From assembly GCA_964649715.1 (NCBI GenBank), contig CAZYTH010000002.1:2248-66247 (forward strand): a stretch of 64,000 nt of DNA, in the 5' to 3' direction. A model generated the notes under the pieces. It was not told the origin of the DNA, did not search any database, and saw only the letters and a program-made list of their open reading frames with translations. Each line of letters starts with the position of its first letter. The stretch's first letter is position 1. The position numbers were made by a program, and so were the translations under genes. Below, in pieces: positions 3,581 through 50,865 of the stretch. Origin of the DNA: an uncultured Candidatus Saccharibacteria bacterium (lineage in GTDB: Bacteria > Patescibacteriota > Minisyncoccia > Phycocordibacterales > UBA12445).

Positions 3581-4273
3581 ATGTCAATTTTATACGTAGT
3601 GGCAACGCCGATAGGCAATCTGAAAGATATAACATTTCGCGCGGTAGAAGTTTTGAAGTCCGTGGATTTTATAATTTGCGAAGATACCAGAGTTACAAAA
3701 AAACTTTTAGATGCATATGGGATAAATAAGCCAACCATCTCATATCACAAAGCAAGTAAGCTAGAGAGAATAGATAATATCATTGAAATGTTAAGAGAGG
3801 GTAAGAGTTCTGCTCTTGTTTCTGATGCTGGGACACCCACAATTTCTGATCCTGGAAGCTTCCTTATACAAAAGGCGAGAGAGGCTCTGGGTGATGAATT
3901 GTCCGTTGTGCCAATTCCAGGACCATCGGCCCTAATTACAGCAATTTCAGCAAGTGGATTTGGAGAAACAGCTTTTACCTTTTATGGATTCTTGCCACAC
4001 AAGAAGGGACGAGAAACCATTTTCAAAGAAATTGCCAAAAATGAAATAATCTCTGTTTTCTATGAATCGCCCCATCGCTTCATAAAAGCGATTGAGTCAT
4101 TAAAGAAATTTTTACAAGAAGGAAGGAAGATTTGTATCGCACGAGAGCTCACTAAGATTTTTGAAGAAGTGGTGTCCGGCACACCTGAAGATATTTTGAG
4201 ATATTATGCCGACAACCCTGACAAGATAAAGGGAGAGTTTGTTATTATTGTCAGTAGTGGATATAATGAGTAG
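3581..4273 (+). CDS. rsmI: 16S rRNA (cytidine1402-2'-O)-methyltransferase
   Basis: N-terminus LYVVATPIGNLKDITFRAVEVLKSVDFIICEDTRVTKKLL is the RsmI/tetrapyrrole-methylase signature. Confidence 0.85.
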   Translation: MSILYVVATPIGNLKDITFRAVEVLKSVDFIICEDTRVTKKLLDAYGINKPTISYHKASKLERIDNIIEMLREGKSSALVSDAGTPTISDPGSFLIQKAREALGDELSVVPIPGPSALITAISASGFGETAFTFYGFLPHKKGRETIFKEIAKNEIISVFYESPHRFIKAIESLKKFLQEGRKICIARELTKIFEEVVSGTPEDILRYYADNPDKIKGEFVIIVSSGYNE

Positions 4274-4339
4274 ATAGAAGGAAAGTAATCTTTAACCTTA
4301 TTTTTGCTTAATAAAACTTAGTGTTTAATTTATAATCAG

Positions 4340-4531
4340 ATGGAAAAGAAACAAAAAAGGAACAAAATCATATATTTAATTATCGGAATTTATCTCATAT
4401 TAGCCCCAACTGGTTTTATTGGTTTTCCTTCGGTTTTTAAAAATGCCCTATATGTCATTTCTGGTTCTATAATATTGTGGAAGAAATTTATAGAGCCTAA
4501 GGAAGACGAAGAAATTTCAGTCATAAGATAA
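4340..4531 (+). CDS. hypothetical small membrane protein
   Basis: 63-aa ORF with one or two TM helices. Confidence 0.25.
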   Translation: MEKKQKRNKIIYLIIGIYLILAPTGFIGFPSVFKNALYVISGSIILWKKFIEPKEDEEISVIR

Positions 4532-5904: not shown

Positions 5905-6849
5905 ATGCAAAAGATAATTTCAATAATCGTTCCGGTTTTTAATGAAGAAAAAAATATTCCTCTTTTAATCTCGGATATCTCAAAAGTTTTTTCTTCTTTG
6001 TCTTATGGATATGAGATTATTTTTGTAAACGACGGTTCAAAAGATAATTCACAACAGTCTATAGAAAGAGTTCTAAGAGAAAATGATCGTGTAAAAAGCA
6101 TAGAGTTTTCAAGAAACTTCGGCAAAGAGGCAGCTACTTCTGCGGGATTGAAATATTCAATTGGTGATGCTGTTATTATCATTGATGCTGACTTGCAACA
6201 TCCGACTTCTCTTATTCCCCAATTTATTGAGCGCTGGGAAAGTGGTTCTGATGTAGTAATCGGCTTGCGAACCAAAACAAAGGGACAATCTCCCATAGAT
6301 GCCTGTTGTTCTTTTCTATACTATAAAATAATCAATGCAATAAGTAGCACCCCCATTGTCCCTGGAGCTACAGATTTTAGACTAATAGATAGGAGGGTTG
6401 TGGATGAATTCAATAGGTTTACTGAACATGAGCGAATCTCTCGAGGGCTTATAGACTGGTTGGGCTTCAAGAGAGAATTTATTGAATTTAAAGCAGGAGA
6501 AAGAGCGAATGGCACAGCCTCTTACTCTTTTTCTAAGCGAGTAAAATTAGCCATGTCTTCTTTTATTATGCACAGCTTGTTTCCTTTAAAATTTGCCGGT
6601 TATCTTGGCATTTTCATTACTACTGCTTCTGGTATCGGTGGACTTGTCATTTTTTTAAATCGTTATGTATTTAATGAAGTTTTTAATTGGAATATTTCAG
6701 GAACAGCACAACTTGCAGTGCTTCTGGTTTTCTTCAATGGTATTATTCTATCTTGTCTCGGCCTTATCGCCCTTTATGTGGGCAATATTCACGATGAAGT
6801 ATTGGGAAGGCCTCTATATGTCATAAGGAGCTCTAAAAATATAAAATAA
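5905..6849 (+). CDS. GT2 polyprenyl-phosphate glycosyltransferase (DPM1/GtrB/ArnC-like) with C-terminal TM helices
   Basis: IISIIVPVFNEE, VNDGSKDNS and IIDADLQHP motifs plus two C-terminal TM segments. Confidence 0.75.
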   Translation: MQKIISIIVPVFNEEKNIPLLISDISKVFSSLSYGYEIIFVNDGSKDNSQQSIERVLRENDRVKSIEFSRNFGKEAATSAGLKYSIGDAVIIIDADLQHPTSLIPQFIERWESGSDVVIGLRTKTKGQSPIDACCSFLYYKIINAISSTPIVPGATDFRLIDRRVVDEFNRFTEHERISRGLIDWLGFKREFIEFKAGERANGTASYSFSKRVKLAMSSFIMHSLFPLKFAGYLGIFITTASGIGGLVIFLNRYVFNEVFNWNISGTAQLAVLLVFFNGIILSCLGLIALYVGNIHDEVLGRPLYVIRSSKNIK

Positions 6850-7944
6850 ATGAAAATCCTTTGGTTCACATGGAAAGATAGAAAAAATCCTTTAGCCGGA
6901 GGGGCGGAAGTGGTGAACGAGGAGCTGGCAAAAAGACTGGCGAATGATGGGCATAATGTCACCTTGCTTGTCGGTGGATTTGACGGATGCGAACCTGAGG
7001 AAAATATAGACGGCTACAAGGTGGTGCGTGTCGGGACCAGATGGACAGTGTATCTGCACGCATATAGATACTACAAGAAACATTTGAAAGGTTGGGCTGA
7101 TTTAGTAATAGATGAAGTAAATACTATTCCATTTTTCTGTAAATATTATGTAAAAGAAAAGAATATACTTTTTATTCATCAGCTGTGTCGTCAAATATGG
7201 TTTTACCAGATGTTTTTCCCTCTTAATATTTTTGGTTTTGTTTTGGAACCGTTTTATCTTTGGCTTTTATCCGATTTAAAGGTTATAACCATTTCAAATA
7301 GCACAAAGAAAGATTTGATGAGATTTGGTTTTAAGCAGGGGAATATAAACATTATAAGCGAAGGGATAGAGATTGAACCGATTAAGGATGTTTCTTTAAT
7401 AAGAAAGTTTGAAAAGCCGACATTGCTCGGGTTCGGAGCTTTTAGAGAGATGAAGCGCACCGATCATATTCTAAAAGCATTTGAAATTGCTAAAGAAAGC
7501 ATGCCTGATTTAAAACTTATTCTGGCTGGCGACTCGTCTGGCGATTATGGTAAAAAAGTGTTAAATTTGATAAAAAATTCAAAATATGCGGATTCTATAA
7601 AATATTTAGGAACGGTTACTATAGAAAAAAAGATAGAATTAATGCAGAGGTCGCACTTGATCGTAGTGACGTCTGTGAAGGAAGGTTGGGGTTTGATAGT
7701 TACCGAAGCTAATTCTCAAGGAACACCCGCAGTGGTCTATAATGTTGATGGTCTGTGCGATGCTGTAAAAGATAACGAAACTGGTCTCGTGTGCCAACAA
7801 AACACCCTTGAAAATTTAGCTGAAAACATGTTAAAGTTGCTAAACAATAAGGAAAAATATCAGAAGTTAAGAGTAAACGCATGGCAGTGGAGCAAAGAAA
7901 TAAATTTTGAAAATAGTTATCGGCAATTTATGGAGGCAATATAA
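6850..7944 (+). CDS. glycosyltransferase family 4 (GT-B fold)
   Basis: C-terminal EGWGLIVTEANSQGTPAVV...ETGLV (EX7E motif) of GT4 enzymes. Confidence 0.65.
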   Translation: MKILWFTWKDRKNPLAGGAEVVNEELAKRLANDGHNVTLLVGGFDGCEPEENIDGYKVVRVGTRWTVYLHAYRYYKKHLKGWADLVIDEVNTIPFFCKYYVKEKNILFIHQLCRQIWFYQMFFPLNIFGFVLEPFYLWLLSDLKVITISNSTKKDLMRFGFKQGNINIISEGIEIEPIKDVSLIRKFEKPTLLGFGAFREMKRTDHILKAFEIAKESMPDLKLILAGDSSGDYGKKVLNLIKNSKYADSIKYLGTVTIEKKIELMQRSHLIVVTSVKEGWGLIVTEANSQGTPAVVYNVDGLCDAVKDNETGLVCQQNTLENLAENMLKLLNNKEKYQKLRVNAWQWSKEINFENSYRQFMEAI

Positions 7945-18644: not shown

Positions 18645-18716
18645 TGGGAAGCTCCTTTCTTTTCAAGATACGAATTTATCTGAGGGTAAACATTTTTTTG
18701 GGCTTTGTCAAGTTTT

Positions 18717-18833
18717 TCGCGTTAGGATTCTTCCATTACGTGGACGGTATACCTTTTGAACATATTTTGTTCGTGCTTCGCACTTCAAAATATGCTCAAA
18801 AGGTCTTCGAACGTGGGACGAAGTTCGACAGGC
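18717..18833. repeat. structured dispersed repeat, copy A (family also at about 27511-27700 and 30205-30535)
   Basis: Shares aggattcttc..gacggta.accttttg.a.atatttt..aaaatatgctcaaaaggt..ttcgaa..acgaag with copies B and C. Contains an 18-bp inverted repeat around a gtgcttcgcac hairpin. Confidence 0.5.
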
Positions 18834-18913
18834 TATTATTATTAATGGTGGATGTAGTAAAAGTGAGGCCGTCTCGTTGAGAAAAATAAATAAGATATGA
18901 TACAATAATTTTC

Positions 18914-19396
18914 ATGAATAAAACCAATATTTATATCGATGGAAATAATCTTTATCGAAGCGCAAAAGATCTTGGTTTTGAAATTGATTATAAAAAATTT
19001 CGCGGTTGGCTCCGTCAAAAATACAATCCGGAATTTGTGTACTTGTTTATCGGGCTCGTACCTGAAAGAGCTAAATTTTACGAACATTTACAAAAATGTG
19101 GTTATATTTTGGTCTTCAAGCAAACAGTATCTGTAGGAGAAAAAATCAAAGGAAATTGTGATGCAGAACTTGTTTTAAAAACTGTATCAGATTTTTATAC
19201 TAAATCTTTTAATTCTTGCATTTTAGTGACGGGGGACGGAGATTTTGGTTGCTTGGCGGAATTTCTAAGAGAAAACAAATCCATGAATTGTATTGTTTCT
19301 CCCGATAAAAATAAGTGTTCAATTCTGCTCAGGAACAAAAATACTGAAATAATTTTTCTAAACGAACATTATCATAAATTTTCAAATAAGGCCTAA
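18914..19396 (+). CDS. NYN domain (LabA-like, PIN-fold) protein
   Basis: NIYIDGNNLYRSAK...VTGDGDF acidic residues of NYN/LabA nucleases. Confidence 0.6.
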   Translation: MNKTNIYIDGNNLYRSAKDLGFEIDYKKFRGWLRQKYNPEFVYLFIGLVPERAKFYEHLQKCGYILVFKQTVSVGEKIKGNCDAELVLKTVSDFYTKSFNSCILVTGDGDFGCLAEFLRENKSMNCIVSPDKNKCSILLRNKNTEIIFLNEHYHKFSNKA

Positions 19397-27408: not shown

Positions 27409-27510
27409 TTTTTCCTCCTCTTAAAGAACTAAGCCTGAAATTAAACTACCTTATCTATGGTAAATATTCAATCTTCGCGTAAGCAAAAATCACCATAGGG
27501 ACTTTATCAT

Positions 27511-27700
27511 TTTACTCCGCGGGTAGGAATTTCGGTCCTTACAGGACCAGTACCCCCGATGGATTTTTTGTTCGTGCAGAGCACTCTAAAAAATGCTCAT
27601 CGGGGCTTCGAATCCTGACGAAAGCCATGGGTAATGGCTTTCTCCCGCGTTCGCAAAAACAGAAAAAGCACCATAAAGGTGCATTTCTGTTTTTACTCCC
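27511..27700. repeat. structured dispersed repeat, copy B (begins with a 14-nt copy of the tRNA-Asn 3' end)
   Basis: tttactccgcgggtagga..., ttcgaatcctgacgaaagccatgggtaatggctttctccc (9-bp perfect hairpin), then hairpin plus ttttactcc. Confidence 0.5.
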
Positions 27701-27827
27701 CAAACAGGTTCAACAACGTTGCTCTCAAGCCATTGTAAGGGTCTTTGAGATGCTCATTGAGTGGGATCGGACGCAAACAGGTCGAAAAGATGCAGGTGAG
27801 AAATGAGACACCATAAAAGAGTTTGTA

Positions 27828-28304
27828 TTATTTTTTCTTCTCTTCTATTGCTTTTTTAGTTTTGGCCTCAAGTTCGTCTGAGTCGTCTGTTCCCATGCGA
27901 TAAATTTTTTGATTTTTCATTATTATTTCGATTGCATCAAAACCTGAGACATTATATATCCACATCCTGGGCCAAAGACAGAATCTTATTCCCCAGCCAC
28001 AATACCAATGGTTTTTTACTTTTCTAACCGAAACAATCTCTTCAAGCGGAAATGTCTTTTTAAAAATCCCATAACCAAACTTAATCTTAAGATATTCTTC
28101 ATTAATGGATGTTGTTAGTGTTGTAAATGATGCAAGAATAAAAAGGATTAAAAACATCACGGAAGTAACGGCAAAGTTTGTGCCGGAGTCGACTGATGGT
28201 GGTTCGGCTCTAGCTGTAATCTGAACCCATGTGAAAAGAATCAATACTGATAAGTTGACAATTATCATTAAGTAGCCAATTTGTGTGTGTTTATATGAGT
28301 TCAT
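27828..28304 (-). CDS. hypothetical membrane protein (two TM helices plus soluble C-terminal domain)
   Basis: Hydrophobic N-terminus; possible bacterial PH-like domain, not certain. Confidence 0.35.
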   Translation of the reverse strand: MNSYKHTQIGYLMIIVNLSVLILFTWVQITARAEPPSVDSGTNFAVTSVMFLILFILASFTTLTTSINEEYLKIKFGYGIFKKTFPLEEIVSVRKVKNHWYCGWGIRFCLWPRMWIYNVSGFDAIEIIMKNQKIYRMGTDDSDELEAKTKKAIEEKKK

Positions 28305-28363
28305 AAATAATTATTTTTATCTCCTTCTTTTGTCTGTGTAATCAATAGAAGATATTTTATCCA

Positions 28364-29140
28364 TTATTCAGTAGCCATTCGAATGTTGCCACATCTATCA
28401 TTCAAATTTTCTACTGCCTTAAATATGTCATCTATTTGGGGTTCATAAGCAATAATCTTATCGTCGTTTTTAAGTTTGAGGGTTATCAATTTATCGTGGG
28501 TTTGAAATATACTTTTTACTTCACAATTATTAAGGGCGGTTAAAACAATATTCCAGTCACTGTTGGCTTCGTTTATAAAGTTTTGACCATCAGGAGTGGC
28601 ACATTGTAGAGGATCAGATTTCATAATAGGAAAACCGGCGGTTACGCAATCGTTAAAATTTCTAATTCTAGCCAGCAGATCGTTACATTTTTCGTAGCTT
28701 GCCATATCGCTTTTTGGTAAACATTCTTTTAACTCATCTGCTAGAGTAGTTTCCTTTTTAATTAAATTTTCAGTAATACTCCACAAAGAATAATATCGAC
28801 TATAGTATCTATGAACAACAACTGCACCAACTCCCGTTTGTGACTCAAAGAAATATCCTGACCCCATTTGTTCGGTAAATTCATAACCCTTATCTTTCAT
28901 AAAGGACTTAATTATCCCAAGGTTATTACTTTTAGTAATGTACTTATTGTCTCCAATATCTAGTTTTATAATATCCTCATTGCCAAAAATTAACTTAGCT
29001 ATTCCTTTTATTTGTGGCCATGGATTACCTTCTTGGAAGATAATCGGGGAATAAAAAAAGATAAAAATACCTAATACTAAAATTATTAGCGAGGTAATAA
29101 GTAGAATCTTTTTGTTTTTTGAGGAGTGTTCAAAAATCAC
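28364..29140 (-). CDS. hypothetical membrane-anchored/secreted protein
   Basis: N-terminal TM anchor; Cys-containing soluble domain. Confidence 0.35.
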   Translation of the reverse strand: MIFEHSSKNKKILLITSLIILVLGIFIFFYSPIIFQEGNPWPQIKGIAKLIFGNEDIIKLDIGDNKYITKSNNLGIIKSFMKDKGYEFTEQMGSGYFFESQTGVGAVVVHRYYSRYYSLWSITENLIKKETTLADELKECLPKSDMASYEKCNDLLARIRNFNDCVTAGFPIMKSDPLQCATPDGQNFINEANSDWNIVLTALNNCEVKSIFQTHDKLITLKLKNDDKIIAYEPQIDDIFKAVENLNDRCGNIRMATE

Positions 29141-29819
29141 AGTGAATTATTTTAAATTATTTTTTATTTCTATCCCTAAACACAACAATAAAAGTGGCGA
29201 CAATTAGTATGAGTCCAATTCCTTGAGCACCGGGGCTGTCATCAAATTCACCAAATACAATAAAGAATACCCCTAATGGTATCGCTATAATTTTTGGAGT
29301 CCAGTATAGAATTTTACTTTTTATATTCATAGACCATTGATAACACACCGAAAAACAAAAAGGTTTTACGGCAAAAAGGCTTTAAGCTTCTCAACAAAAG
29401 GTTTTTCTGACTCTAATTCTTCCGCGACTGCTGTAAACATATCACAGGGAAGGTGCTCATCAAGCGCCAAGAAGAATTTTTTTATTTTTTGCATTTCTTT
29501 TTTATTACAAGTAATAAGTGAATTATACAGTGTAAATTTTTTACAGTAAATCAAAAATACACTGGTAGTTTATACAGAGTAACTTAAGGAGATAAAAGAT
29601 TAATTTTCTTGTAAACCTTTAATCCAAAAATAACCACACATAAAGGCGGTTATTTTTGGGGAGGCATAAATGTTCCTAAACCCAGTTTTGGGCGGGGATA
29701 GGTTGGATGACACTAAAATTATGAATTCCATTTAATAGATTCCATTCGAACCTGGAGACAGTTTGCTCTTGAGTGGTTTACACTATATCTAGAATCGGGG
29801 AGATGATATAATTGGACTC

Positions 29820-30173
29820 ATGAAAGATAATAGGGAAATTATTTTAATCAGAAATTCTCTGGGGATTATTGTGGCTGGACTTGTTCTGGCTAAATATTTA
29901 TTGGAATATCACATTTACAGTGACAATGAATCTTTGGTTTCTGAAATAGCTCGTAGCGTGTCTTTTTTATTCGTACCAATACTGATAGTCGGTTTGGCAT
30001 TCACGATGTTATATTTTTCATATGTAATAATAAAAAAATCAGAGAATCACGAAGAAATTTCCCAGAGATCCGGAACGTTAAGAAAACCATTTGCCTTGGC
30101 ATTGGTTATCATCCTCACTCTTCCGATAATTTTTATTATTTTAATGATCCTGCTCAAATATAATTTTCTTTAA
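29820..30173 (+). CDS. hypothetical membrane protein
   Basis: Three TM helices. Confidence 0.3.
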   Translation: MKDNREIILIRNSLGIIVAGLVLAKYLLEYHIYSDNESLVSEIARSVSFLFVPILIVGLAFTMLYFSYVIIKKSENHEEISQRSGTLRKPFALALVIILTLPIIFIILMILLKYNFL

Positions 30174-30204
30174 ATATAGGGGAAACAAAAAGGCACACAA
30201 AAGG

Positions 30205-30535
30205 GTGTTTTTTTGATTTACTCCGCGGGTAGAAGGATTCTTCGCTTACATCGACGGTAAACCTTTTGGATATTTTATTTCATCTTCGTAAACTCAGATC
30301 CATAAAATATGCTCAAAAGGTTATTCGAATCCTAACGAAAGCCATGGGTAATGGCTTTCTCCCTTGGAGGATTCTTTCTCTATGAGAACTGTATAGGTTT
30401 CCCATTTTTTCGGATTAAAAAATCCTCAAAAATATAGGAGAACCTTTTCGAATCCTACACGGAAACCAAGCAGTTGGTTTCCTCCACTCCGTAAAATGAA
30501 AAAGACCCTATAAAGGGGCTTTTTCATTTTACTCC
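30205..30535. repeat. structured dispersed repeat, copy C (compound; contains an 18/20 match to the tRNA-Asn 3' end)
   Basis: tttactccgcgggtagaaggattcttcg... plus two ttcgaatccta.acg-hairpin-ctcc modules and a terminal hairpin plus ttttactcc. Confidence 0.5.
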
Positions 30536-30657
30536 ACATCGTGAACGAAGTTATAACCTATTTTAAGACCACGGACCAATACCATTACATACCAGCCTTT
30601 TAATTAAGATAGCCCGTGTTTGCCCTAAAATGCCCTCGTGTAGGGCTTTTCAAGTGC

Positions 30658-31896
30658 TTATTTGATAGTCTTGAGGAGTTCTGAATTGTAACCCTTTAAG
30701 TCGACCTTTTTTGAGGCATCATATGCTATGTTTTCTACTTCTTTAAGATAAACGGTGTTTTTTGAATAATCAGAGAGTGTCATGTCATTCTCATTAAAAT
30801 CCATAACCACGTTACGATTTCTGTTTTGAGTTATTTGAGCATGACTATAAGCATCGATGTAGACCATATTTTGCCATTTATCGAGTAAGCGGAAATGATT
30901 TTGACTCTCAGACCAAGCAAGTGGCACAACGTGGTGTAATTCAAAGCCTTTAATTTTGTCTTTAATTTTATGGTTAACAAAGTACTGATATTTTTCATTG
31001 AGTGACCGATCAAGTCTTTTTGGTGATTCACTGCCACTGAAACTATTCTTACCAGTTCTCAAGACTAGTTGTTCACCCCTCTGCTCGAAATACACAGTCT
31101 GGTTTAATAAAGTGTAAACCTGTTGTGCCTCATTTCTCCAATTATGAAAATCTCTTTTCTTGATTTTATTTCCAGCGAACTTTTCTGGAACTAAATCATT
31201 TTTTAATGTTTCTAGTACAGCCTGTCTTTGTATGTTTGATAAAGCCCTATACGATTTTATTAATTCAACTGCCTCGTCTGGTGTTATGTTAAAAGTCGAG
31301 TCAACAACACCAATAGCGGATACAAAAAATTGATATTCAGACAGCGAGATACTATCTATTCCATAATCAGCGTCTCTGAGAATATCAAGGACCATATCGA
31401 TAGAACCACTCAACAAAGTATCAATAGCCTTTGAGAACACGAATTCTTGATCCAAGATAGTTTGCGCAGTTATTAATTTGTGACCAAGTTCAGAGAGTGC
31501 TACGTATTTAACACTAGATCGTGCAAATGGGTCTAGTGGCTTTTTATTTTTATCAAATCTATTTATTAGCCCCATTCGATGTAAATCAACGAATAGGTTT
31601 TTTCTCATAGCATCCTGTGTACCAATGCCCGATAATTCTTTTGCGGCATCACAGAATCGTGCGTAGACTGCTTCATCGGGAGTATTCTCTGGTCTCTTTG
31701 ATAGGTCTGCTGTTCTTATTGCCATCAAAGATAAACTTGGTGCGAATTGGTCCAACAATTTCAAAATACCCACAATTCTTGTCGAATCATATCTGTTGTG
31801 TTGCGAGAAATGAAGCCCACGATATTTATCATCGGCTATTCTCCTGGTTATGAATTCCAGTGATTTATTTCCTTGGTTAATATCAATTAATGCCAT
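30658..31896 (-). CDS. restriction endonuclease-like protein with C-terminal HNH nuclease motif
   Basis: GFELHHVVPLAWSESQNHF...DAYSHAQI (HH..N..H) at C-terminus. Operonic with two DNA methyltransferases, with 14-nt overlap. Confidence 0.5.
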   Translation of the reverse strand: MALIDINQGNKSLEFITRRIADDKYRGLHFSQHNRYDSTRIVGILKLLDQFAPSLSLMAIRTADLSKRPENTPDEAVYARFCDAAKELSGIGTQDAMRKNLFVDLHRMGLINRFDKNKKPLDPFARSSVKYVALSELGHKLITAQTILDQEFVFSKAIDTLLSGSIDMVLDILRDADYGIDSISLSEYQFFVSAIGVVDSTFNITPDEAVELIKSYRALSNIQRQAVLETLKNDLVPEKFAGNKIKKRDFHNWRNEAQQVYTLLNQTVYFEQRGEQLVLRTGKNSFSGSESPKRLDRSLNEKYQYFVNHKIKDKIKGFELHHVVPLAWSESQNHFRLLDKWQNMVYIDAYSHAQITQNRNRNVVMDFNENDMTLSDYSKNTVYLKEVENIAYDASKKVDLKGYNSELLKTIK

Positions 31897-32665
31897 ATTC
31901 TTTTAAGTTCTTTTTTGCTAATTCGACATACTTTTTATCTGCATCAGCACAGATAAAATTCCTCTTTAGTCTGTTTGCAGCAACTGCCGTCGTACCACTT
32001 CCAACAAAACAATCCAAAACAAGATCACCACGTTTTGAACTTGCCTTTATTATACGCTCAACTAGGTCGAGTGGCTTAGGCGTAAGATGCTCCATTTTCT
32101 GCGTCTTTCCGTTAACTTTTCTTTTATGTCTTTCGCTTGTTATATGCCACACTTCACCACAAAAACGACCGTCTGGATTTGGAAACCAACGTTTACCATT
32201 TTTTAAGATACCTTTTTCTGCTGCGTGTTGAATGCGATCGGTAGATTCATAAGGAATTCTTATATCGTTGTAATTAAAAACATGCTTATTTGATTTAGTA
32301 AAAAATAAAATAGTCTCTTGACCATTACTATATTTTCTTTTCGAAGCACCAAGACCATCTCTTTTATCCCAGGTAATCCAATTTTGAAATACCATTTTCT
32401 TTGATACAAGGTACTGGAGAATAAAAGCGGAGTTGAACGGCGTATTGAATACATACAAACTACCATTGTCCTTTAATTTTTCAATAACTAAATCTAACCA
32501 TGCGTACGTAAAATTCAAAAAATCTGATTGTGATTTGAAAGTATCCCAATCTGCTTTATGCATATTGTAAGGGGGATCAACCACAACCAAGTCAATTGAT
32601 TTATTATCAATTTTTTTCAAAAAATCAAAGCAATCCAAATTGTGTATTTTATTAATTTCCAACAT
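31883..32665 (-). CDS. DNA methyltransferase (N6-adenine or N4-cytosine, beta class), DPPY motif
   Basis: DLVVVDPPYNM (motif IV) then C-terminal FVGSGTTAVAA (motif I): ParB-like/N6_N4_Mtase order. Confidence 0.75.
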   Translation of the reverse strand: MLEINKIHNLDCFDFLKKIDNKSIDLVVVDPPYNMHKADWDTFKSQSDFLNFTYAWLDLVIEKLKDNGSLYVFNTPFNSAFILQYLVSKKMVFQNWITWDKRDGLGASKRKYSNGQETILFFTKSNKHVFNYNDIRIPYESTDRIQHAAEKGILKNGKRWFPNPDGRFCGEVWHITSERHKRKVNGKTQKMEHLTPKPLDLVERIIKASSKRGDLVLDCFVGSGTTAVAANRLKRNFICADADKKYVELAKKNLKEYGIN

Positions 32666-32667
32666 AA

Positions 32668-33528
32668 TTATTTTTTCAATTTGAGATTGATAACTTTCTC
32701 ATAACTCTTGGATATTTCATACCCAACATAGTCTCTGCCTAATTCTTTTGCTACTTTAAGTGTGGTTCCAGAACCAGCAAATGGGTCCAGGACCAACTCG
32801 CCAACAAAAGTAAACAACTTAACACAGCGTCGAACTATCTCCTCAGGCATAAGAGCAGAATGTTCACCAAAAGCAATGTCACCCTTACCTGGAATAGGGA
32901 TATTCCATATTTGCTTTGTAAGTTCAACCCACTCCTTTTGAGTTAACTTACTTTTTTCTTTAATATCTTTAGGAACATTATTTTCAGGTTGCCCATCCTT
33001 TACATAAACAGTAATAAATTCAATAGTGTTTTGTGCATAGAAATTACGAGGGTACGGATAACTTCCAAACATTAATTTTTTTGATGGGTTTGTGCGATTC
33101 CAGATATACACATCCATCAAAAAAAGACCCGTGCCATTAATAACAGAATGTTGAATATCACTATTGATATCAAAAATATGACGATTATAGTGAGTAATTA
33201 AATTCTTTTTAAGCATCGGCATTAACGGAGTGTTTATGATAAGTTTACCGTTTGGTTTTAATACTCTCTCACACTCTTTCCATACCTCTAACATTTCTTT
33301 TATGTATTTTGAGTAGTCTGGAATATCGCCGATTTGCCCTTTTGCTTTTGAAATTTTCTTTTTTTCTTGGCGACCATCCATGGAATAGTCTTTGATATTA
33401 AAATATGGTGGACTTGTTACGATCAATTGAACAGAGTTGTCTGGCAACTCCTTCATATCTCTCGCATCCTTAAAAAATACTTTGTTCTTATATTCCATAA
33501 AATTATTTTTTGTATTGCTTTTTTGCAA
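32668..33528 (-). CDS. DNA methyltransferase, SPPY motif (N4-cytosine type likely)
   Basis: LIVTSPPYFN (motif IV) and C-terminal FAGSGTTLKVA (motif I). Confidence 0.75.
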   Translation of the reverse strand: MQKSNTKNNFMEYKNKVFFKDARDMKELPDNSVQLIVTSPPYFNIKDYSMDGRQEKKKISKAKGQIGDIPDYSKYIKEMLEVWKECERVLKPNGKLIINTPLMPMLKKNLITHYNRHIFDINSDIQHSVINGTGLFLMDVYIWNRTNPSKKLMFGSYPYPRNFYAQNTIEFITVYVKDGQPENNVPKDIKEKSKLTQKEWVELTKQIWNIPIPGKGDIAFGEHSALMPEEIVRRCVKLFTFVGELVLDPFAGSGTTLKVAKELGRDYVGYEISKSYEKVINLKLKK

Positions 33529-33709
33529 TTTTTACATTCGAAGTTAGTTGCAAAAACTTCTCAAGGTCCTGTTCGTCAATTCTCCAATAACCGACCTTTG
33601 ATGCTTTTAGTTTACCTTCATGAATGTAGCGAAATACAGAGCGTTCACTCACACGGAGCACCTCTGCAACTTCTTTTGTATTAAGAAATTTTGTAGTCAT
33701 TTTTTTCAT
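33503..33709 (-). CDS. excisionase/MerR-type helix-turn-helix DNA-binding protein
   Basis: FLNTKEVAEVLRVSERSVFRYIHEGKLKASKVGYWRIDEQDLEKFL matches the Xis/AlpA HTH_17 pattern. Confidence 0.65.
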   Translation of the reverse strand: MKKMTTKFLNTKEVAEVLRVSERSVFRYIHEGKLKASKVGYWRIDEQDLEKFLQLTSNVKIAKKQYKK

Positions 33710-34022
33710 TTGGTCTCCTTGTTACATTTTAACTTTTATGAAAACTTATGTCAAAGTGTGTCATGTTGTTTCTTGATTAAATTATACAGTGGAGGTATAA
33801 TTGGAACGCTACCCATATAGTTTGTAATAATCCAAAACGGGCAAATGCCTTTTTGTGTCACGTAGTTGTGACCAGAGAAGGGCAGTTTGTCCCTGCCACA
33901 ACTACTGTCGCCCTTTTGGGTTACAGACTATGTGGGTAGCCAGGTGTACAGGCTGCCCCTTTCTTGTTTTTAGGCGCAGCATAAAGTCGAAAGCCTGAAT
34001 TAATAATTTAGGAAAAAACTAT

Positions 34023-34481
34023 ATGCTATTTAATGTAATTTTTGCACTTTCATTTTTATTTGTTGCAGACTTGTTATGGCGACGTCACAAGAAAAACAAA
34101 CAAACAAAACTTCTCAATAATCCTGATTTTTTAATAGAACAAATTGAGGAGAAAAAAAGTAAATTCATACCTGCTATTGCTAAATCGTCTGAAAACTCAA
34201 ATTGGGATGTGTATAGCGAGATACTCAAAGATATTGAACAGACAGATTCGCAATTTTTGCAACTAAAAGAAAGGTACGTACATGATAAAGAAAAACTGTT
34301 AAATATAATAAAGGATTATGATAACTACTTAGCAAGTCAGAGTACCTTGTATTGGGCGTGGAGAGCGCTGTATACGGACCTGGAGGATGGTGCTAGCGAC
34401 AGGTTCGATGAGGAGGCAAAAGAACCTAGAATAAGAATTGAGGAAATAAAAAAACGTTTTACTGTTTTGCTAAATAAGTAA
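34023..34481 (+). CDS. hypothetical membrane-anchored protein (island cargo)
   Basis: Single N-terminal TM, charged coiled-coil-like remainder. Confidence 0.3.
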   Translation: MLFNVIFALSFLFVADLLWRRHKKNKQTKLLNNPDFLIEQIEEKKSKFIPAIAKSSENSNWDVYSEILKDIEQTDSQFLQLKERYVHDKEKLLNIIKDYDNYLASQSTLYWAWRALYTDLEDGASDRFDEEAKEPRIRIEEIKKRFTVLLNK

Positions 34482-34538
34482 GTTGCCCCAGGGCAAATGC
34501 TCGATAAATAAGGCACAAAATGGTAAAATGTATTTACT

Positions 34539-35273
34539 ATGGTTTCAGAGTTGGAATTCAAAATTAAATTTGTTTTGGAGTATTTAAGGAATCAAATACA
34601 GGATGAAAATCAGCCTGAAACTTTTGAAATTGACCAACAAAAATTTGATTTTGATAATAGTCGTGGTGGCATCATTCCTAAGAATGTAGAGGTTAGAGAT
34701 ATTGTTCGGCAAATTACCTCAGGGAATGAACTGGGTGAAATACTTGATCACATATCAGATATAACAAATGGAGAATTTAAGTTAGTATCGATTGCGCCAA
34801 TAAGAAAGGTTGATTCAAGAAATCCAATAGAACTTACTTTTGGTACCAAAAAGTTGAAAGTGGCACCAGCCCATACTCAGTGGTCTAGTGGATATAATGC
34901 TTGGACCGTTGAATACCACCCCGAAAAGAAGCATTTACAAAAGAAAATCCTATCCAATAAGCAGGTTTTTAATTTTTACATAAACAAGGATCGAGAACTT
35001 ACCCAAGTGCTACCAGATAGACCTGAAAAGACAATTAAAATTACTAAAAAACAGTACGCATTTTTTGAATTACTCGTTGAATATGACCACTCCTATGCAC
35101 CAGCAAAAGACATTGCGGAAACTATTAAAAGCCCTACGAAGTATGTTCAAAATTTAGCACAACTACTTAAAAAGGAAATAGATAAAAACTTTGTCGGTAT
35201 TACAGGAAAAGAATTCATTGAATCGGATGATGGGTATAGGATAGGTAGAAAAGTGAAACTCATATTGAAGTAG
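34539..35273 (+). CDS. protein with C-terminal OmpR/PhoB-type winged-helix DNA-binding domain
   Basis: ITKKQYAFFELLVEYDHSYAPAKDIAETIKS...VQNLAQLLKKEID...GYRIG resembles Trans_reg_C. N-terminal 150 aa unassigned. Confidence 0.45.
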   Translation: MVSELEFKIKFVLEYLRNQIQDENQPETFEIDQQKFDFDNSRGGIIPKNVEVRDIVRQITSGNELGEILDHISDITNGEFKLVSIAPIRKVDSRNPIELTFGTKKLKVAPAHTQWSSGYNAWTVEYHPEKKHLQKKILSNKQVFNFYINKDRELTQVLPDRPEKTIKITKKQYAFFELLVEYDHSYAPAKDIAETIKSPTKYVQNLAQLLKKEIDKNFVGITGKEFIESDDGYRIGRKVKLILK

Positions 35274-35717
35274 TGCACAAAAATAAATTGTGGATAAGTA
35301 GAAAAAGCACAGGAAAATAAACCTGTGTTTTTTCTATTTTGTGCACCACTTCTGGTATTTATTGTGCACATTACTAACTCCTAGAATGAGTCATAGGAGT
35401 TGGATCCAACCTACAAACGTTCGCTTTGGTCCCAACTCCCAAGGCGAATTTTTGTTTTTCAGGAATCCGCCACTGAACAGAAATGTTCACGTCACCGAAC
35501 TCTTCGTACAAGAGAACCTAATGACGAAAATTGATAGGTGGCATGTACGCCAATACGGATACCTCATCAACGTGCAGAGGAAGCGGTGTCTGAGTGGAGC
35601 AGTAACCTCCACCACCCCTCCCAGCAACCAGTACCTAGAAAACACAAGCAAGAAAGTTGAAGTGAGTCGTGGATACCAAAAGTAACTACTTCCTACTGCA
35701 ATTGAAAGGAATACGGC

Positions 35718-35906
35718 TTGGGGGGTTCGGGCATTGCAATGGCAATAGCAAATACTATGCGAGACAAACATTATCCAAATAGGTCGATAAGACTATCAGA
35801 CGAAGTGTGGGAAACATTCAAGAGCCAAGTAAAACACTCTGGTAAGTCTTGGAATTTGTTTGTGCGTAATTTGTTAGCCAAGAACAAAAACAAGCAAAAG
35901 AAATAA
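35718..35906 (+). CDS. ribbon-helix-helix (CopG/Arc-like) DNA-binding protein
   Basis: RSIRLSDEVWETFKSQVKHSGKSWNLFVRNLL: beta strand plus two helices typical of RHH. Confidence 0.45.
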   Translation: MGGSGIAMAIANTMRDKHYPNRSIRLSDEVWETFKSQVKHSGKSWNLFVRNLLAKNKNKQKK

Positions 35907-36071
35907 GTTTTATGATTAGCCAGCAAACATTACAAGAATTCAAAGAGATCTTTGAAAAAGAACTCGGACCAATGCCAGACGAGGAAGTCTTGCTTGATTC
36001 GGCTTGTGATTTGCTGACACTGTTTGATAACACCTACAAACCCATAAAAAAGGAATGGGTTGAGAAATTTC

Positions 36072-36285
36072 CCCCAGGGCAAAAAGAAATGGTGGAAAAT
36101 GGACAATTTATTGCCCCAGGGCAAAAAATAAACCAAGAAAACCAAGAAAATAATTTCCCCAGGGCAAAAATAACAGGCAATAACAGATAAAATTATCTAA
36201 TAAATTGCCCCAGGGCAACAAAAAACGGTAGAAAACGGATAAATAATTCACCTTATGCAAATACACAATTATTGCCCCAGCGCAA
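36072..36285. repeat. iteron-like direct repeats, five copies of TT(G/T)CCCCAGGGCAAAAA; sixth copy at 34486-34496
   Basis: Cores at 36072, 36114, 36157, 36208 and 36275 (the last with one mismatch); spacing 42, 43, 51 and 67 nt. Confidence 0.55.
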
Positions 36286-36391
36286 AAAGAAGTGGTGAAT
36301 GTGGATAGTTTTATGTAAAAAGTCATTGGAGTCATGCCAATCCACTAGACTTCTATTAAAAATTAAGGCATGTTCGTAATAAGAAAACCCT

Positions 36392-36577
36392 ATGAAAAAA
36401 ACAAGCAAAGTAAGTCAATACTGGAAAAGTAGAGCAACCTTCATAAACCAACATTTAGGTGCTGAGGTACAACCACTTACTCCCTTAGAACTAAGAGAAA
36501 TGCATAGTCGAAGCATTAAGAGAGGAATTAGCCATAGAAAATTAAATCCAAAGTTATATGAAAACCCAACCAAATAA
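36392..36577 (+). CDS. small basic protein immediately upstream of and overlapping the recombinase start
   Basis: 61 aa, lysine/arginine-rich. Speculative recombination directionality factor or leader peptide. Confidence 0.2.
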   Translation: MKKTSKVSQYWKSRATFINQHLGAEVQPLTPLELREMHSRSIKRGISHRKLNPKLYENPTK

Positions 36578-38192
36578 CCCAATCAAGTACTTTATTTATG
36601 CCCGCAAGTCGAGCGAGGATAAAGAAAAACAAGTCGCATCTATTGAGGACCAGTTAGAAGTTCTTAATAAAATCGCAATACAAAATAACATTAAAATAGT
36701 ACATGTATATGAGGAATCACAATCAGCCAAAAAACCAGGCAGACCACAATTCACCGCCATGCTCGAACGGATTATTAAAGGCGATGCTAGTGGGATACTT
36801 TGTTGGAAACTTGATCGCCTGGCTCGCAATCCTATTGATGGTGGGCAGATAAACTGGCTACTTCAACAAGGAACAATACAAATTATTAAAACAAACGAGC
36901 GAGATTACTACCCAAGCGACAACGTTTTGATGATGCAAGTTGAACTTGGTATGGCTAACCAATACATTCGAGACCTTTCATCAAATGTAAAGCGTGGGCT
37001 CGCTAAGAAATTACGTGATGGCTGGTTACCAGGTCTTGCACCTATCGGATACTTAAACGATCGAACAAACGAAAAAGGAAATCGCACAGTTATGAATGAT
37101 CCTGATAGATTTGTACTGGTTCGTAGAATATGGGACCAAGCACTTACTGGTAATTACACAGTGCCTCAGTTATGGGAGTACTCGAGAAAAGAATTGAATC
37201 TAACAACCGTACTAAGACGAAAGTCTGGAGGTAAGCCATTATCAAAAAGCGCAATGTATTCATTACTCACTAACCCGTTTTATTACGGAATGATTCGGTA
37301 TCCTGAAAAGACTGGTGAACTACATCAAGGTAAACACGAACCAATGATAACGGTCCAAGAATTTGACCGTGTACAAGACATAATTGGCACTCGTAACGCA
37401 ATACGACCTAAGAATGAAGTGTTTGCTTTTACTGGTCTTATGAGGTGCGGTAACTGCGGTTGCTCAGTAACTGCTGAAAGTAAAATAAAGCGATGTAAGA
37501 ATGGAAATTCGCATTACTATACCTACTACCATTGCACTAAAAAGAAAGTCGACATTAAATGCGATCAAAAAAGTGTAGAGGTACGTAAACTAGAGACTAT
37601 GTTCAAAGAGAAATTGATGAACTTGCAAATCTCAGATGCGTTCAAAGCATGGGCAATAAAACATTTGCACGAAATAAGAACCACTGAGGCAGATAGCAAC
37701 AAAATAGCAATGAGTGTGGCATCCAAAGAACTCGCAACCGTGTCAGAGCAACTAAGAGCACTAACTTTGAATTACACATCACCACAGAACATAAACAGAT
37801 CGATAATGACCGAGAGTGAATACTTGGAATTTAAGAATGACCTATTAAAAAAGAAAGAGACCGCAGAGAGTCGAGTTAAAACAACATCAGACGAACTCGA
37901 GTCTTGGGTTGAACTTAGTGAAAAAACTTTTAATCTAGCGTTCTATGCGAGTGTTTGGTTTGAAAAAGGAACGAACGAACAACGTAAAGCAATAATGTCG
38001 TGTTTAGGCTCGAACCTCACACTGAAAGATGGAAAAATCCAACTATACATGCATCCTTTCATTGAAACGCTTATTCAAAACAAAAAATATGTCACTATTG
38101 AGAATCCAAAGGTTAGAACCTCTGAAAACTCAATGTACATAAGACAAAACGCCGCTTTAGGCGACGTTTCATCAAAGTGGCTCCGCGGGTAG
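36558..38192 (+). CDS. large serine recombinase (resolvase-domain integrase)
   Basis: YFIYARKSSEDKE...IEDQ resolvase N-domain with catalytic Ser. Recombinase domain and CGNCGC...YYHC zinc-ribbon. The 3' end overlaps tRNA-Asn. Confidence 0.85.
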   Translation: MKTQPNNPIKYFIYARKSSEDKEKQVASIEDQLEVLNKIAIQNNIKIVHVYEESQSAKKPGRPQFTAMLERIIKGDASGILCWKLDRLARNPIDGGQINWLLQQGTIQIIKTNERDYYPSDNVLMMQVELGMANQYIRDLSSNVKRGLAKKLRDGWLPGLAPIGYLNDRTNEKGNRTVMNDPDRFVLVRRIWDQALTGNYTVPQLWEYSRKELNLTTVLRRKSGGKPLSKSAMYSLLTNPFYYGMIRYPEKTGELHQGKHEPMITVQEFDRVQDIIGTRNAIRPKNEVFAFTGLMRCGNCGCSVTAESKIKRCKNGNSHYYTYYHCTKKKVDIKCDQKSVEVRKLETMFKEKLMNLQISDAFKAWAIKHLHEIRTTEADSNKIAMSVASKELATVSEQLRALTLNYTSPQNINRSIMTESEYLEFKNDLLKKKETAESRVKTTSDELESWVELSEKTFNLAFYASVWFEKGTNEQRKAIMSCLGSNLTLKDGKIQLYMHPFIETLIQNKKYVTIENPKVRTSENSMYIRQNAALGDVSSKWLRG

Positions 38193-38252
38193 GATTCGAA
38201 CCTACGACCAACCGCTTAACAGGCGGTCGCTCTACCACTGAGCTACCGCGGA
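38178..38252 (-). tRNA. tRNA-Asn (anticodon GUU), CCA encoded
   Basis: Reverse complement tccgcggtagctcagtggtagagcgaccgcctGTTaagcggttggtcgtaggttcgaatcctacccgcggagcca folds as a cloverleaf. 7-bp acceptor stem; ctgttaa anticodon loop. Confidence 0.85.
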
Positions 38253-40640: not shown

Positions 40641-41207
40641 GTGCTATATTGGATAAGATTAAAATTTAATCAAAATAAAATGAAAAGATTATTTATTGCG
40701 TTGGAGGTTCCGGAGAACCTGAAATCAGAAGTCGTTGTTTGGAAGGATAAGCATTACAGCCTTCCTGTAAGGTGGATACCGAGCAGTGACTTACATATAA
40801 CAATTGTTCCCCCGTGGGATGAAGAGGACCCTGAGGGTGTTATAGAAAAATTGGACACAATTCAGGGAAAGACGGGATCGATAAGGGTTTCTTTTGATAG
40901 GGTCTCGATTGGTCCAAACAGGAGATTTCCGAGACTTATCTGGGCAACCGGAGAGGTGCCTCAGAGAATGCTTGTGCTTAGGGAATTGATCAAGAATACT
41001 TTAAGTAAGATTAGTGATAGGAATGTTTTTTTCACCCACTTAACAATGGGTAGGTTTGAGGAAAAGGATTTAGAAAAGTTTCCTGGGCAGAGATTAAGTG
41101 AAGATGTTGATTGGCTTTGCTTTTCTGAAAGTATACTTCTTATGGAAACTAAGATCGGGGATTCGGGCGTTCCTGAATACGAGATTTTGAAAAAAGTTAC
41201 AATATAG
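40641..41207 (+). CDS. thpR: RNA 2',3'-cyclic phosphodiesterase / 2'-5' RNA ligase (2H phosphoesterase)
   Basis: Two H-x-T/S-x motifs (DLHITIVPP and FTHLTMGRF). Probable true start at MKRLFIALEV (40680). Confidence 0.65.
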   Translation: MLYWIRLKFNQNKMKRLFIALEVPENLKSEVVVWKDKHYSLPVRWIPSSDLHITIVPPWDEEDPEGVIEKLDTIQGKTGSIRVSFDRVSIGPNRRFPRLIWATGEVPQRMLVLRELIKNTLSKISDRNVFFTHLTMGRFEEKDLEKFPGQRLSEDVDWLCFSESILLMETKIGDSGVPEYEILKKVTI

Positions 41208-50460: not shown

Positions 50461-50533
50461 GGGCCGTTAGCTCATCTGGTAGAGCACCACATTTGCAATG
50501 TGGGGGTGGCAGGTTCGAGTCCTGTACGGTCCA
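50461..50533 (+). tRNA. tRNA-Ala (anticodon UGC), no encoded CCA
   Basis: Cloverleaf with G3:U70 wobble in the acceptor stem (the Ala identity element); ttTGCaa anticodon loop. Confidence 0.85.
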
Positions 50534-50865
50534 CAAAATAACCACACAAATGAGAAGCATTTGTGTGGTTATATTTTTTGCGACCGTACAGGACTCGAAG
50601 CCCGATTGAGATATTTTTGGAGTTTACGAACAAAAATATCCAATTGGGTTGAAATGCGAAGAGTTGTAGTATTTCAAAGACGGAGCGATCGAATGTGAGT
50701 GAGTCGGGGTCGCGGAAATTTTGCATAGCAAAATTATCTGTGACACTGACCTCGTGGAGGTCGAGTCCAAGACGATATCGCTTGCTCAAATGCAGTTTAC
50801 CTGTCTATTTGTAAAGCACAGATTGTTTGTGGTAGAATTGAAATATTATCCTTATTAAAAAAATT

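Follow-up and report, generated by a model that had tools for sequence, protein, structure and literature searches.

The repeats described here are, judging by their sequence, a modular non-coding element that is tied to tRNA genes in the Patescibacteria (CPR). In tRNA orientation, the full module comprises, in order, T1, S'a, H3, S'b, L, the GUACUG strand (J), h and S; for units A, B, C1 and C2 of the 64,000-nucleotide stretch of DNA analysed (the window; Table 1), this orientation corresponds to the minus strand. T1 is a bidirectional terminator-like hairpin. S'a is Watson–Crick antisense to a stretch covering the acceptor 3' strand of the tRNA, its discriminator and the first bases of the trailer, whilst S'b is the antisense of tRNA positions 54–65 (the T loop and the T-stem 3' strand); the two are separated by H3, a lineage-specific hairpin. 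L is a long conserved hairpin, h a hairpin with a GUA triloop, and J lies between them. Finally, S repeats the final ~20 nt of the tRNA in direct orientation, ending one base beyond the discriminator. Units are ~130–190 nt in length and contain no ORF. The scaffold is constant at at least 17 tRNA species, with S' and S always being the local tRNA sequence. S'a is antisense of the tRNA 3' strand rather than a copy of the 5' strand, as seen from the A that stands opposite U70 in tRNA-Ala units, and the antisense segment tracks the neighbouring tRNA, since unit D carries tRNA-Ala antisense.

The first-pass annotation of the window described a structured repeat with copies at 18.7, 27.5 and 30.2 kb, all of which are present at these positions. 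The copy at 30.2 kb is real but is not a single copy, being resolved by two nhmmer matches into the tandem units C1 and C2. The ordered blocks that the copies were said to share align with a mean column identity of 66%, and the similarity does not dissolve on alignment. A profile built from the window copies matches the plus strand at 18702–18850, 27502–27659, 30207–30365 and 30357–30499 with E-values of 1e-27 to 1e-35, values that are circular, since the same copies went into the profile; a fifth, weaker match lies on the opposite strand at 50584–50646, directly past the tRNA-Ala gene. A spaced pattern derived from L occurs twice in the window and in none of 100 shuffles, and all window copies are more stably folded than their shuffled versions (z −2.8 to −5.8). 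In copy A, the reported 18-bp inverted repeat around gtgcttcgcac corresponds to hairpin L, and the perfect 9-bp hairpin (gaaagccat-gggta-atggctttc), found in B and C1, is H3. The proposed likeness to the 3' end of tRNA-Asn is borne out by the 12-mer CTCCGCGGGTAG, which occurs in the window only at 27515, at 30221 and in the tRNA gene itself at 38181. Unit C2 carries a second subtype of L, in which G:C pairs are flipped to C:G, and decay is greatest in unit A, the window copy most distant from tRNA-Asn. A gene encoding an NYN-domain ribonuclease (18914–19396) adjoins unit A and one encoding a LigT-like 2H phosphoesterase (40641–41207) lies near tRNA-Asn; both are RNA-end enzymes, although this may be coincidence.

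Table 1 Units, tRNA genes and inserted blocks in the window
Feature	Position	Strand	Description	Parts
Unit A	18712–18835	−	Decayed Asn-type unit	S 18712–18731 (degenerate); h 18732–18744; J 18745–18750; L 18751–18805; S'b 18806–18817 (mutated); truncated H3 remnant up to ~18835
Unit B	27515–27649	−	Complete Asn-type unit	S 27515–27534 (14 nt identical to tRNA-Asn end); h 27535–27547; J (GTACTG) 27548–27553; L 27554–27606; S'b 27607–27617; H3 27621–27641; S'a 27642–27649
T1 of unit B	27655–27694		Bidirectional terminator-like hairpin	
TTTACTCC after T1 of unit B	27692–27699	+	TAAA plus last 4 nt of tRNA-Asn end	
Gene block 2	27700–30220		2.5 kb; three small ORFs, no recombinase	
Unit C1	30221–30358	−	Asn-type unit	S 30221–30241 (12 nt identical to tRNA-Asn end); h 30242–30254; J 30255–30259; L 30260–30322; S'b 30324–30335; H3 30338–30358
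Unit C2	30359–30490	−	In tandem with C1; second L subtype	S 30359–30375 (degenerate); h 30376–30388; J 30389–30394; L 30395–30446; S'b 30447–30458; H3 30461–30482; S'a-like 30481–30490
T1 of unit C2	30493–30530		Hairpin between A and T runs, then TTTACTCC (30528–30535)	
Island 1	30536–38180		7.6 kb, between tRNA-Asn end and T1/C2; junctions share CTCC	
tRNA-Asn(GTT)	38178–38252	−	Last ~20 nt are the source of S and S' in A, B, C1 and C2	
tRNA-Ala(TGC)	50461–50534	+	Source of the antisense segment of unit D	
Unit D	50540–50676	+	Ala-type variant, without H3	T1 terminator 50540–50579; antisense of tRNA-Ala 3' end 50582–50599 (18 nt, uninterrupted); L 50600–50649; other hairpin (TGAAAT..ATTTCA) 50650–50676, replacing h

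The family extends well beyond the window. The first-pass annotation had allowed that only three copies might exist, all at recombination junctions, but many copies are found in ~60 other genomes, mostly right after a tRNA and without an island. A pattern derived from L, scanned over 185,579 species genomes, returned at least 118 loci; about half of those listed are true units and, among the matches listed, the true units all fall in Patescibacteria/CPR assemblies (labelled Saccharibacteria, Paceibacterota, Taylorbacteria or Parcubacteria). Using nhmmer with a profile made from the window copies only, we recovered at least 77 further units, in ~60 CPR genomes among the matches listed. Among these same matches, 46 of the at least 77 units follow a similarly oriented tRNA gene at a distance of 10–110 nt, at least 17 tRNA species being represented, and most sit directly past the tRNA with no island; S'b has at most one mismatch to the local tRNA in 41 of the 46. 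Antisense of tRNA positions 54–65 is found within 200 nt downstream of 55 of 91 tRNAs at unit loci, compared with 2 of 129 at other metagenome loci, the latter two both belonging to a further class of CPR unit. Synteny across Ddl and tRNA-Ala links the window to one unit-bearing genome (~69% nucleotide identity), the relatives of the window Ddl carry CPR labels, and one window unit shares 92% identity with a unit from a genome in which identity across housekeeping genes is ~69%.

The S copy repeats the tRNA sequence exactly over as many as 24 nt (range 5–24 nt) and stops at the tRNA end. In approximately half of the tRNA-adjacent units there are exact repeats of 13–24 nt ending at the tRNA 3' end, with the tRNA intact according to ARAGORN and Rfam. 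The acceptor part of S has decayed in around half of the units, which matches the expectation for a displaced end. A minimal case is seen at locus L110, where an insert of ~100 nt lies between perfect 18-nt repeats and is followed by an ordinary terminator. Nearly all of 33 tRNA genes in CPR loci lack an encoded CCA and have CA directly past the discriminator. A CCA follows the S copy in 6 of the 33 and the tRNA in 2 of the 33, and as a signature of retro-copying this was judged weak.

The covariation check on the folded consensus that had been suggested at the outset was carried out, and it bears out the description of the repeats as a structured family: L and h covary strongly. Over 57 units, pairing holds in 94.5% of cells for the 23 base pairs in L and h, compared with 70% in shuffles, and the covariation score is 0.58 compared with 0.13, with none of 500 shuffles scoring as high and slid controls reaching no more than 0.125. 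Changes on both sides are seen in 18 of the 23 pairs. The tRNA-sense strand is the better folder in 58 of 64 units, and also in 49 of 68 when composition-corrected z-scores are used (p = 3e-5). In addition, at 38 of 41 loci the tRNA acceptor 3' strand pairs with S'a to give the basal part of a long, near-perfect hairpin (median 20 bp). Covariation and strand bias point to a functional single strand of tRNA polarity, which could be either RNA or DNA.

Spread of units within genomes, when judged by scaffold similarity, was considered and set aside, as L, J and h are no more alike inside genomes than between them (identity 0.72 in both cases). Only H3 behaves differently, with an identity of 0.74 within a genome and 0.62 between genomes despite the different tRNAs involved, a pattern that suggests either within-genome homogenisation or co-evolution with a genome-specific partner. 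GNA-type mini-hairpins (GCGAAGC, GCAAAGC, GCGGAGC) recur at the centres of the tRNA–S'a palindromes and at the apex of L (examples being loci L088 and L074 and positions 18770–18785 of window unit A), and the GTA triloop of h is invariant. Triloops of this kind are unusually stable in single-stranded DNA, which could have some bearing on the choice between RNA and DNA.

Units are subject to turnover. Each tRNA has from 0 to 3 copies, tandem arrays exist, and units are also found decayed, chimeric or orphaned. The orthologous Ddl–tRNA-Ala site in relatives of the window carries no unit, one or two units, or other inserts: past tRNA-Ala there is the D variant in the window, a single unit at L113, a 570-bp cassette and then a unit at L242 and L243, a unit, a 2.3-kb island and another unit at L053, and no unit but a different, 85-nt palindromic insert at L246. 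At least three other scaffolds, unrelated in sequence and without an Rfam match, occupy the S'...S frame behind other CPR tRNAs (class 2 at L096, L106, L110, L084 and L127, class 3 at L078 and class 4 at L012), and at L096 a class-2 and a class-1 unit stand in tandem. One chimeric unit (L005, positions 6752–6904) has an antisense segment that corresponds to the adjacent tRNA-Pro and a sense copy that corresponds to the 3' end of tRNA-Arg, implying recombination between units at different tRNA genes.

Our preferred explanation, which we hold tentatively and with some reserve, is that the unit may be a miniature non-autonomous element whose integration sites are tRNA 3' ends and whose folded attachment structure mimics the target. 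Mobility, a single-stranded intermediate and an enzyme are what we infer here. The element would enter a tRNA gene by recombination within S; integration would regenerate the tRNA and displace the old 3' end, which would then be the downstream S copy. In the single-stranded tRNA-sense form, folding would bring S' and S together to reconstitute the target duplex beside the L/h scaffold, producing a folded attachment site like that of integron attC or CTXphi attP, with the recombinase supplied in trans. A possible route by which S' could become matched to each tRNA is template-switch correction of the inverted arm, with the tRNA sequence as the reference. The att-type repeat, the decay of S, the arrays and turnover and the interchangeable scaffolds all fit an integrated small element that recombines in the last ~20 nt of the tRNA. 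Against this, no recombinase or transposase is found within the units or recurrently beside them, a different S/S' pair is needed for each of the at least 17 tRNAs, and there is no filled/empty pair among near-identical genomes. The even likeness of L, J and h within and between genomes also counts against an integrated element, as does the 92% identity of a unit shared by genomes ~69% identical; a constrained cellular RNA would fit these two observations at least as well.

Such an RNA is the main rival explanation, and a possible one, though we think it doubtful. The unit would then be a cellular non-coding RNA derived from the tRNA 3' trailer by read-through or co-transcription, in which S' and S close a helix that copies the acceptor/T-arm 3' strand and a putative CPR protein binds a conserved three-way junction made up of L, GUACUG and h; the role of the RNA could lie in the maturation or surveillance of tRNA 3' ends, or tRNA enzymes could process it. 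The fact that L and h are deeply conserved and covary across CPR classes, the G-U pairs and better folding of the tRNA-sense strand and the fixed orientation behind tRNA genes all favour this reading, and the homogeneity of H3 in each genome is as expected if it co-evolves with a partner. At L110, L108-Pro and L005 there is no terminator between the tRNA and the unit but there is one past the unit, which suits co-transcription and is a further point against an integrated element. Plant tRNA–snoRNA dicistrons, mascRNA, bacterial YrlA and viral tRNA-like structures are known examples of tRNA-linked or tRNA-mimicking RNAs, and the units resemble these in that an RNA would lie beside, or be shaped like, an acceptor/T-arm and would possibly be handled by tRNA enzymes.

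The units differ from those RNAs, however, in that the discriminator is paired and the G3.U70 pair is lost, and no Rfam match to those families was found. Nor is a T-loop or D-loop mimic kept in the units, the T loop being paired with S'b. As S'a pairs with position 74 as well as the discriminator and turns G3.U70 of tRNA-Ala into A-U, the helix would be a poor mimic for RNase P, RNase Z or AlaRS; an aminoacylatable minihelix was rejected on the same pairing of the discriminator and the same A-U change. Other evidence against a trailer RNA comes from the variation in copy number per tRNA, the decayed, chimeric and orphan units, the differences between orthologous loci, the fact that roughly half the units have lost the acceptor portion of S and the presence of several unrelated scaffolds in one frame. 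Finally, a strong bidirectional terminator precedes the unit in many loci. In the window, T1 scores as a terminator on both strands and separates the units from the tRNA, and a sigma-70 scan detected no promoter-like site beside the window units.

A quite different possibility is that the units are attachment sites, primary or, as the first-pass annotation suggested, secondary, of the large serine recombinase encoded in the window. The recombinase is a 544-aa ORF (36558–38192) in Island 1, which also contains two N6/N4 DNA methylase genes and several ORFs without a Pfam match. Its gene has its stop codon inside tRNA-Asn, and the units carry tRNA-end sequence and are located at block boundaries; indeed, the layout of the window supports the earlier suggestion that copies lie at junctions of inserted DNA. 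Furthermore, a distant large serine recombinase abuts tRNA-Ala at locus L244. The junctions of Island 1, however, share nothing beyond CTCC, and the left junction (30532–30535) lies outside C2, beyond T1 and 38 nt from the unit. On our reading, joining the inner halves of the island would give an attP (..tcatcaaagtggCTCCacatcgtgaacg..) with its own imperfect dyad, centred on CTCC, and without unit sequence. In a tblastn search of the 118 loci holding 77 units (among the matches listed), the only homologue of the recombinase was that of the window itself. Taking these points together, we regard it as scarcely credible that the units are attachment sites of this enzyme.

The outer halves of Island 1, when joined, would read T1-TTTA-CTCC-GCGGGTAGG, that is, a normal tRNA-Asn end followed by T1 and then C2–C1, and the T1 of C2 would in this reconstruction be the original tRNA-Asn terminator. 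As the outer halves restore the tRNA-Asn end, T1 and the units, Island 1 would have entered between the tRNA and units that were already present. The same order, a tRNA end followed by T1 and units, is found in other CPR genomes (locus L128 being one example). A pattern scan of metagenomes for the reconstructed empty tRNA-Asn site itself found nothing, and a second pattern matched mostly proteobacterial tRNA-Asn genes together with a few CPR loci with units. Gene block 2 runs from the CTCC past T1 of unit B to the S copy of C1 and has TTTACTCC at both flanks; it appears that the S copy within C1 served as a secondary insertion point for this block. We read A, B, C1 and C2 as probable successive former tRNA-Asn ends, with D as their tRNA-Ala counterpart. 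The serine-recombinase island and older gene blocks would later have been inserted at the boundary between GGAG and TAAA, past the tRNA or an S copy.

Inserted blocks beside tRNA ends finish with ATGT and the last bases of the tRNA at L053 (5255–7632), at L242 (4122–4640) and in the 30536 region of the window, the two tRNA-Ala endings reading GATGTAGTCCA and GTCGTAGTCCA and the tRNA-Asn ending of the window ACGATGTGGAG. The common ending could be a half-site of the enzyme responsible for insertion. At L244, two partial tRNA-Ala 5' fragments are found upstream of tRNA-Ala (3990–4480), their D loop being split by an insert of ~95 nt with inverted ends (TCCCGAT...ATCGGGA) beside a GIY-YIG ORF. 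The large serine recombinase at this locus is 503 aa in length, is 29% identical to that of the window, and is encoded convergently with, and overlapping, the intact tRNA-Ala.

The direct repeats of the tRNA end with islands between them in the window, L053 and L242 might also be taken to mean that units are inert scars (CIME-like accretion), composed of tRNA 3'-end fragments and terminators that persisted after islands had repeatedly integrated and decayed, and alike by common descent only. Integrative elements are well known to accrete at tRNA genes (PMC5704250). Neither a covarying scaffold found across bacterial classes nor an antisense copy matched to each of at least 17 tRNAs is expected of scars, however, and most units are right behind a tRNA with no island. 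This reading is disfavoured, and we consider it improbable.

In the first-pass annotation the repeats were likened to a dispersed MITE-like family, and units do resemble MITEs in size, copy number, hairpin potential and lack of coding capacity. Were the unit a classical MITE, mobilised by a DDE or HUH transposase, it would have terminal inverted repeats and a target-site duplication, and the inverted flanks and direct repeat of the unit might be seen in these terms. The inverted flanks are not constant, however, but vary so as always to match the local tRNA end, and the left one is broken by H3; the direct repeat is 5–24 nt in length and always corresponds to the tRNA end, rather than being a short duplication of fixed size; insertion is confined to tRNA 3' ends, a strict linkage that is not MITE-like; and there is no related transposase nearby, nor was any full-length element seen that combines these scaffold ends with a transposase gene. 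We therefore think a classical MITE very improbable. The related suggestion of a tRNA-derived miniature element is correct as regards the flanks, which do come from a tRNA, but the unit is neither a tRNA-like gene nor a classical MITE. A tRNA gene or pseudogene was rejected, as there is no cloverleaf and only the last ~20 nt of a tRNA are present, in one sense and one antisense copy; neither ARAGORN nor the Rfam tRNA model called any unit.

Returning to the preferred reading, that of a small integrating element, the closest comparison is with tRNA-targeting integrative elements (IMEs and CIMEs), which likewise insert at the tRNA 3' end and leave the tRNA intact, with a direct repeat of the tRNA 3' end and tandem accumulation at one site (PMC5704250). 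Units differ from these in being only ~130–190 nt, without genes or a nearby integrase, and in having a covarying scaffold conserved across CPR classes and an internal antisense of the target, the latter being absent from such att regions. Of the features that define a tRNA-integrating element, the att-type direct repeat is present, whilst the units encode no integrase of their own and the ORFs neighbouring ~60 loci offer no recurrent recombinase as a helper.

In attC and the CTXphi attP, the stem mimics the binding site of the recombinase (R/L boxes, dif). Units are similar in that structure is kept over sequence, one strand folds, inverted arms rebuild a duplex site, the apex is variable and arrays are interleaved with gene cassettes. 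They are dissimilar in that the stem corresponds to the end of an individual target tRNA. On inspection of the units by eye, no attC R''/R' cores (RYYYAAC ... GTTRRRY) were noticed, and no intI was seen among the annotated ORFs. The primer binding site of retroviruses and LTR retrotransposons, in which ~18–20 nt of a structured non-coding region are complementary to the 3' end of a specific tRNA, offers another parallel, since units carry an exact complement of about this length (~18–20 nt) to the 3' end of a specific tRNA. In the unit, however, complementarity runs into the trailer of the gene rather than to CCA, and the unit lies beside the tRNA gene itself, paired in cis with the sense copy. 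No reverse transcriptase was found near units.

A further reading, which we think unlikely, is that the unit is the integrated, linear form of, or the template for, a circular single-stranded molecule (RNA or ssDNA) of rod-like shape and ~150–190 nt in length. The unit strand would run from position 74 past the tRNA (or the previous S) to position 73 of the next S. Both ends would then lie side by side at a nick on the continuous trailer'–S'a strand, which would act as a ligation splint. The molecule would form a single extended helix (S.S' plus trailer.trailer'), with the T1 loop closing one end, the L/h junction closing the other and H3 as a branch, and cuts would be made at the RNase Z-type site of the tRNA and at that of the S'/S mimic. 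If true, this would explain the antisense copy, the perfect palindrome across the trailer, the direct repeat to the tRNA end, the arrays and the alternative scaffolds.

Searches for known families and partners were negative. Rfam 15 at the gathering threshold identified only the two tRNAs in the whole window, and relaxing the threshold to E up to 10 for unit B and E up to 1 for 12 CPR loci gave no match on units. There was no match to unit B in a blastn search of 72,556 plasmids. Two pattern scans of 2.9 million viral contigs yielded no true match but only three chance ones, all in coding DNA, and thus no autonomous partner or vehicle is known. The ORFs neighbouring ~60 loci include no recurrent recombinase, transposase or other gene, only housekeeping clusters; those around orphan units revealed nothing obvious, and an exact look-up of two window proteins returned no match on record. 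Several RNA motifs were considered by eye and dropped: a group II intron domain V, the bulges being on the wrong strand, hammerhead and box C/D or H/ACA guide RNAs, the target being paired contiguously with no pocket, and a kink-turn.

Since the units qualify neither as tRNA genes nor as MITEs, recombinase attachment sites or members of an Rfam family, and since a full-text search of the literature found no description of the module, we rate the architecture as apparently new in kind and offer its function as a proposal. If this is correct, a large fraction of CPR tRNA genes would bear a conserved and structured, but unannotated, module whose core is a sense/antisense pair of their own 3' end, which would explain tRNA 3' ends as layered insertion sites in these reduced genomes and would provide a sequence marker for delimiting islands and annotating CPR genomes. 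The mechanism would be a new one, either a target-mimicking integration site specified by nucleic acid or a new tRNA-trailer RNA, and the combination of a 20-nt complementary specificity segment with a constant scaffold would be an arrangement that has proved programmable elsewhere.
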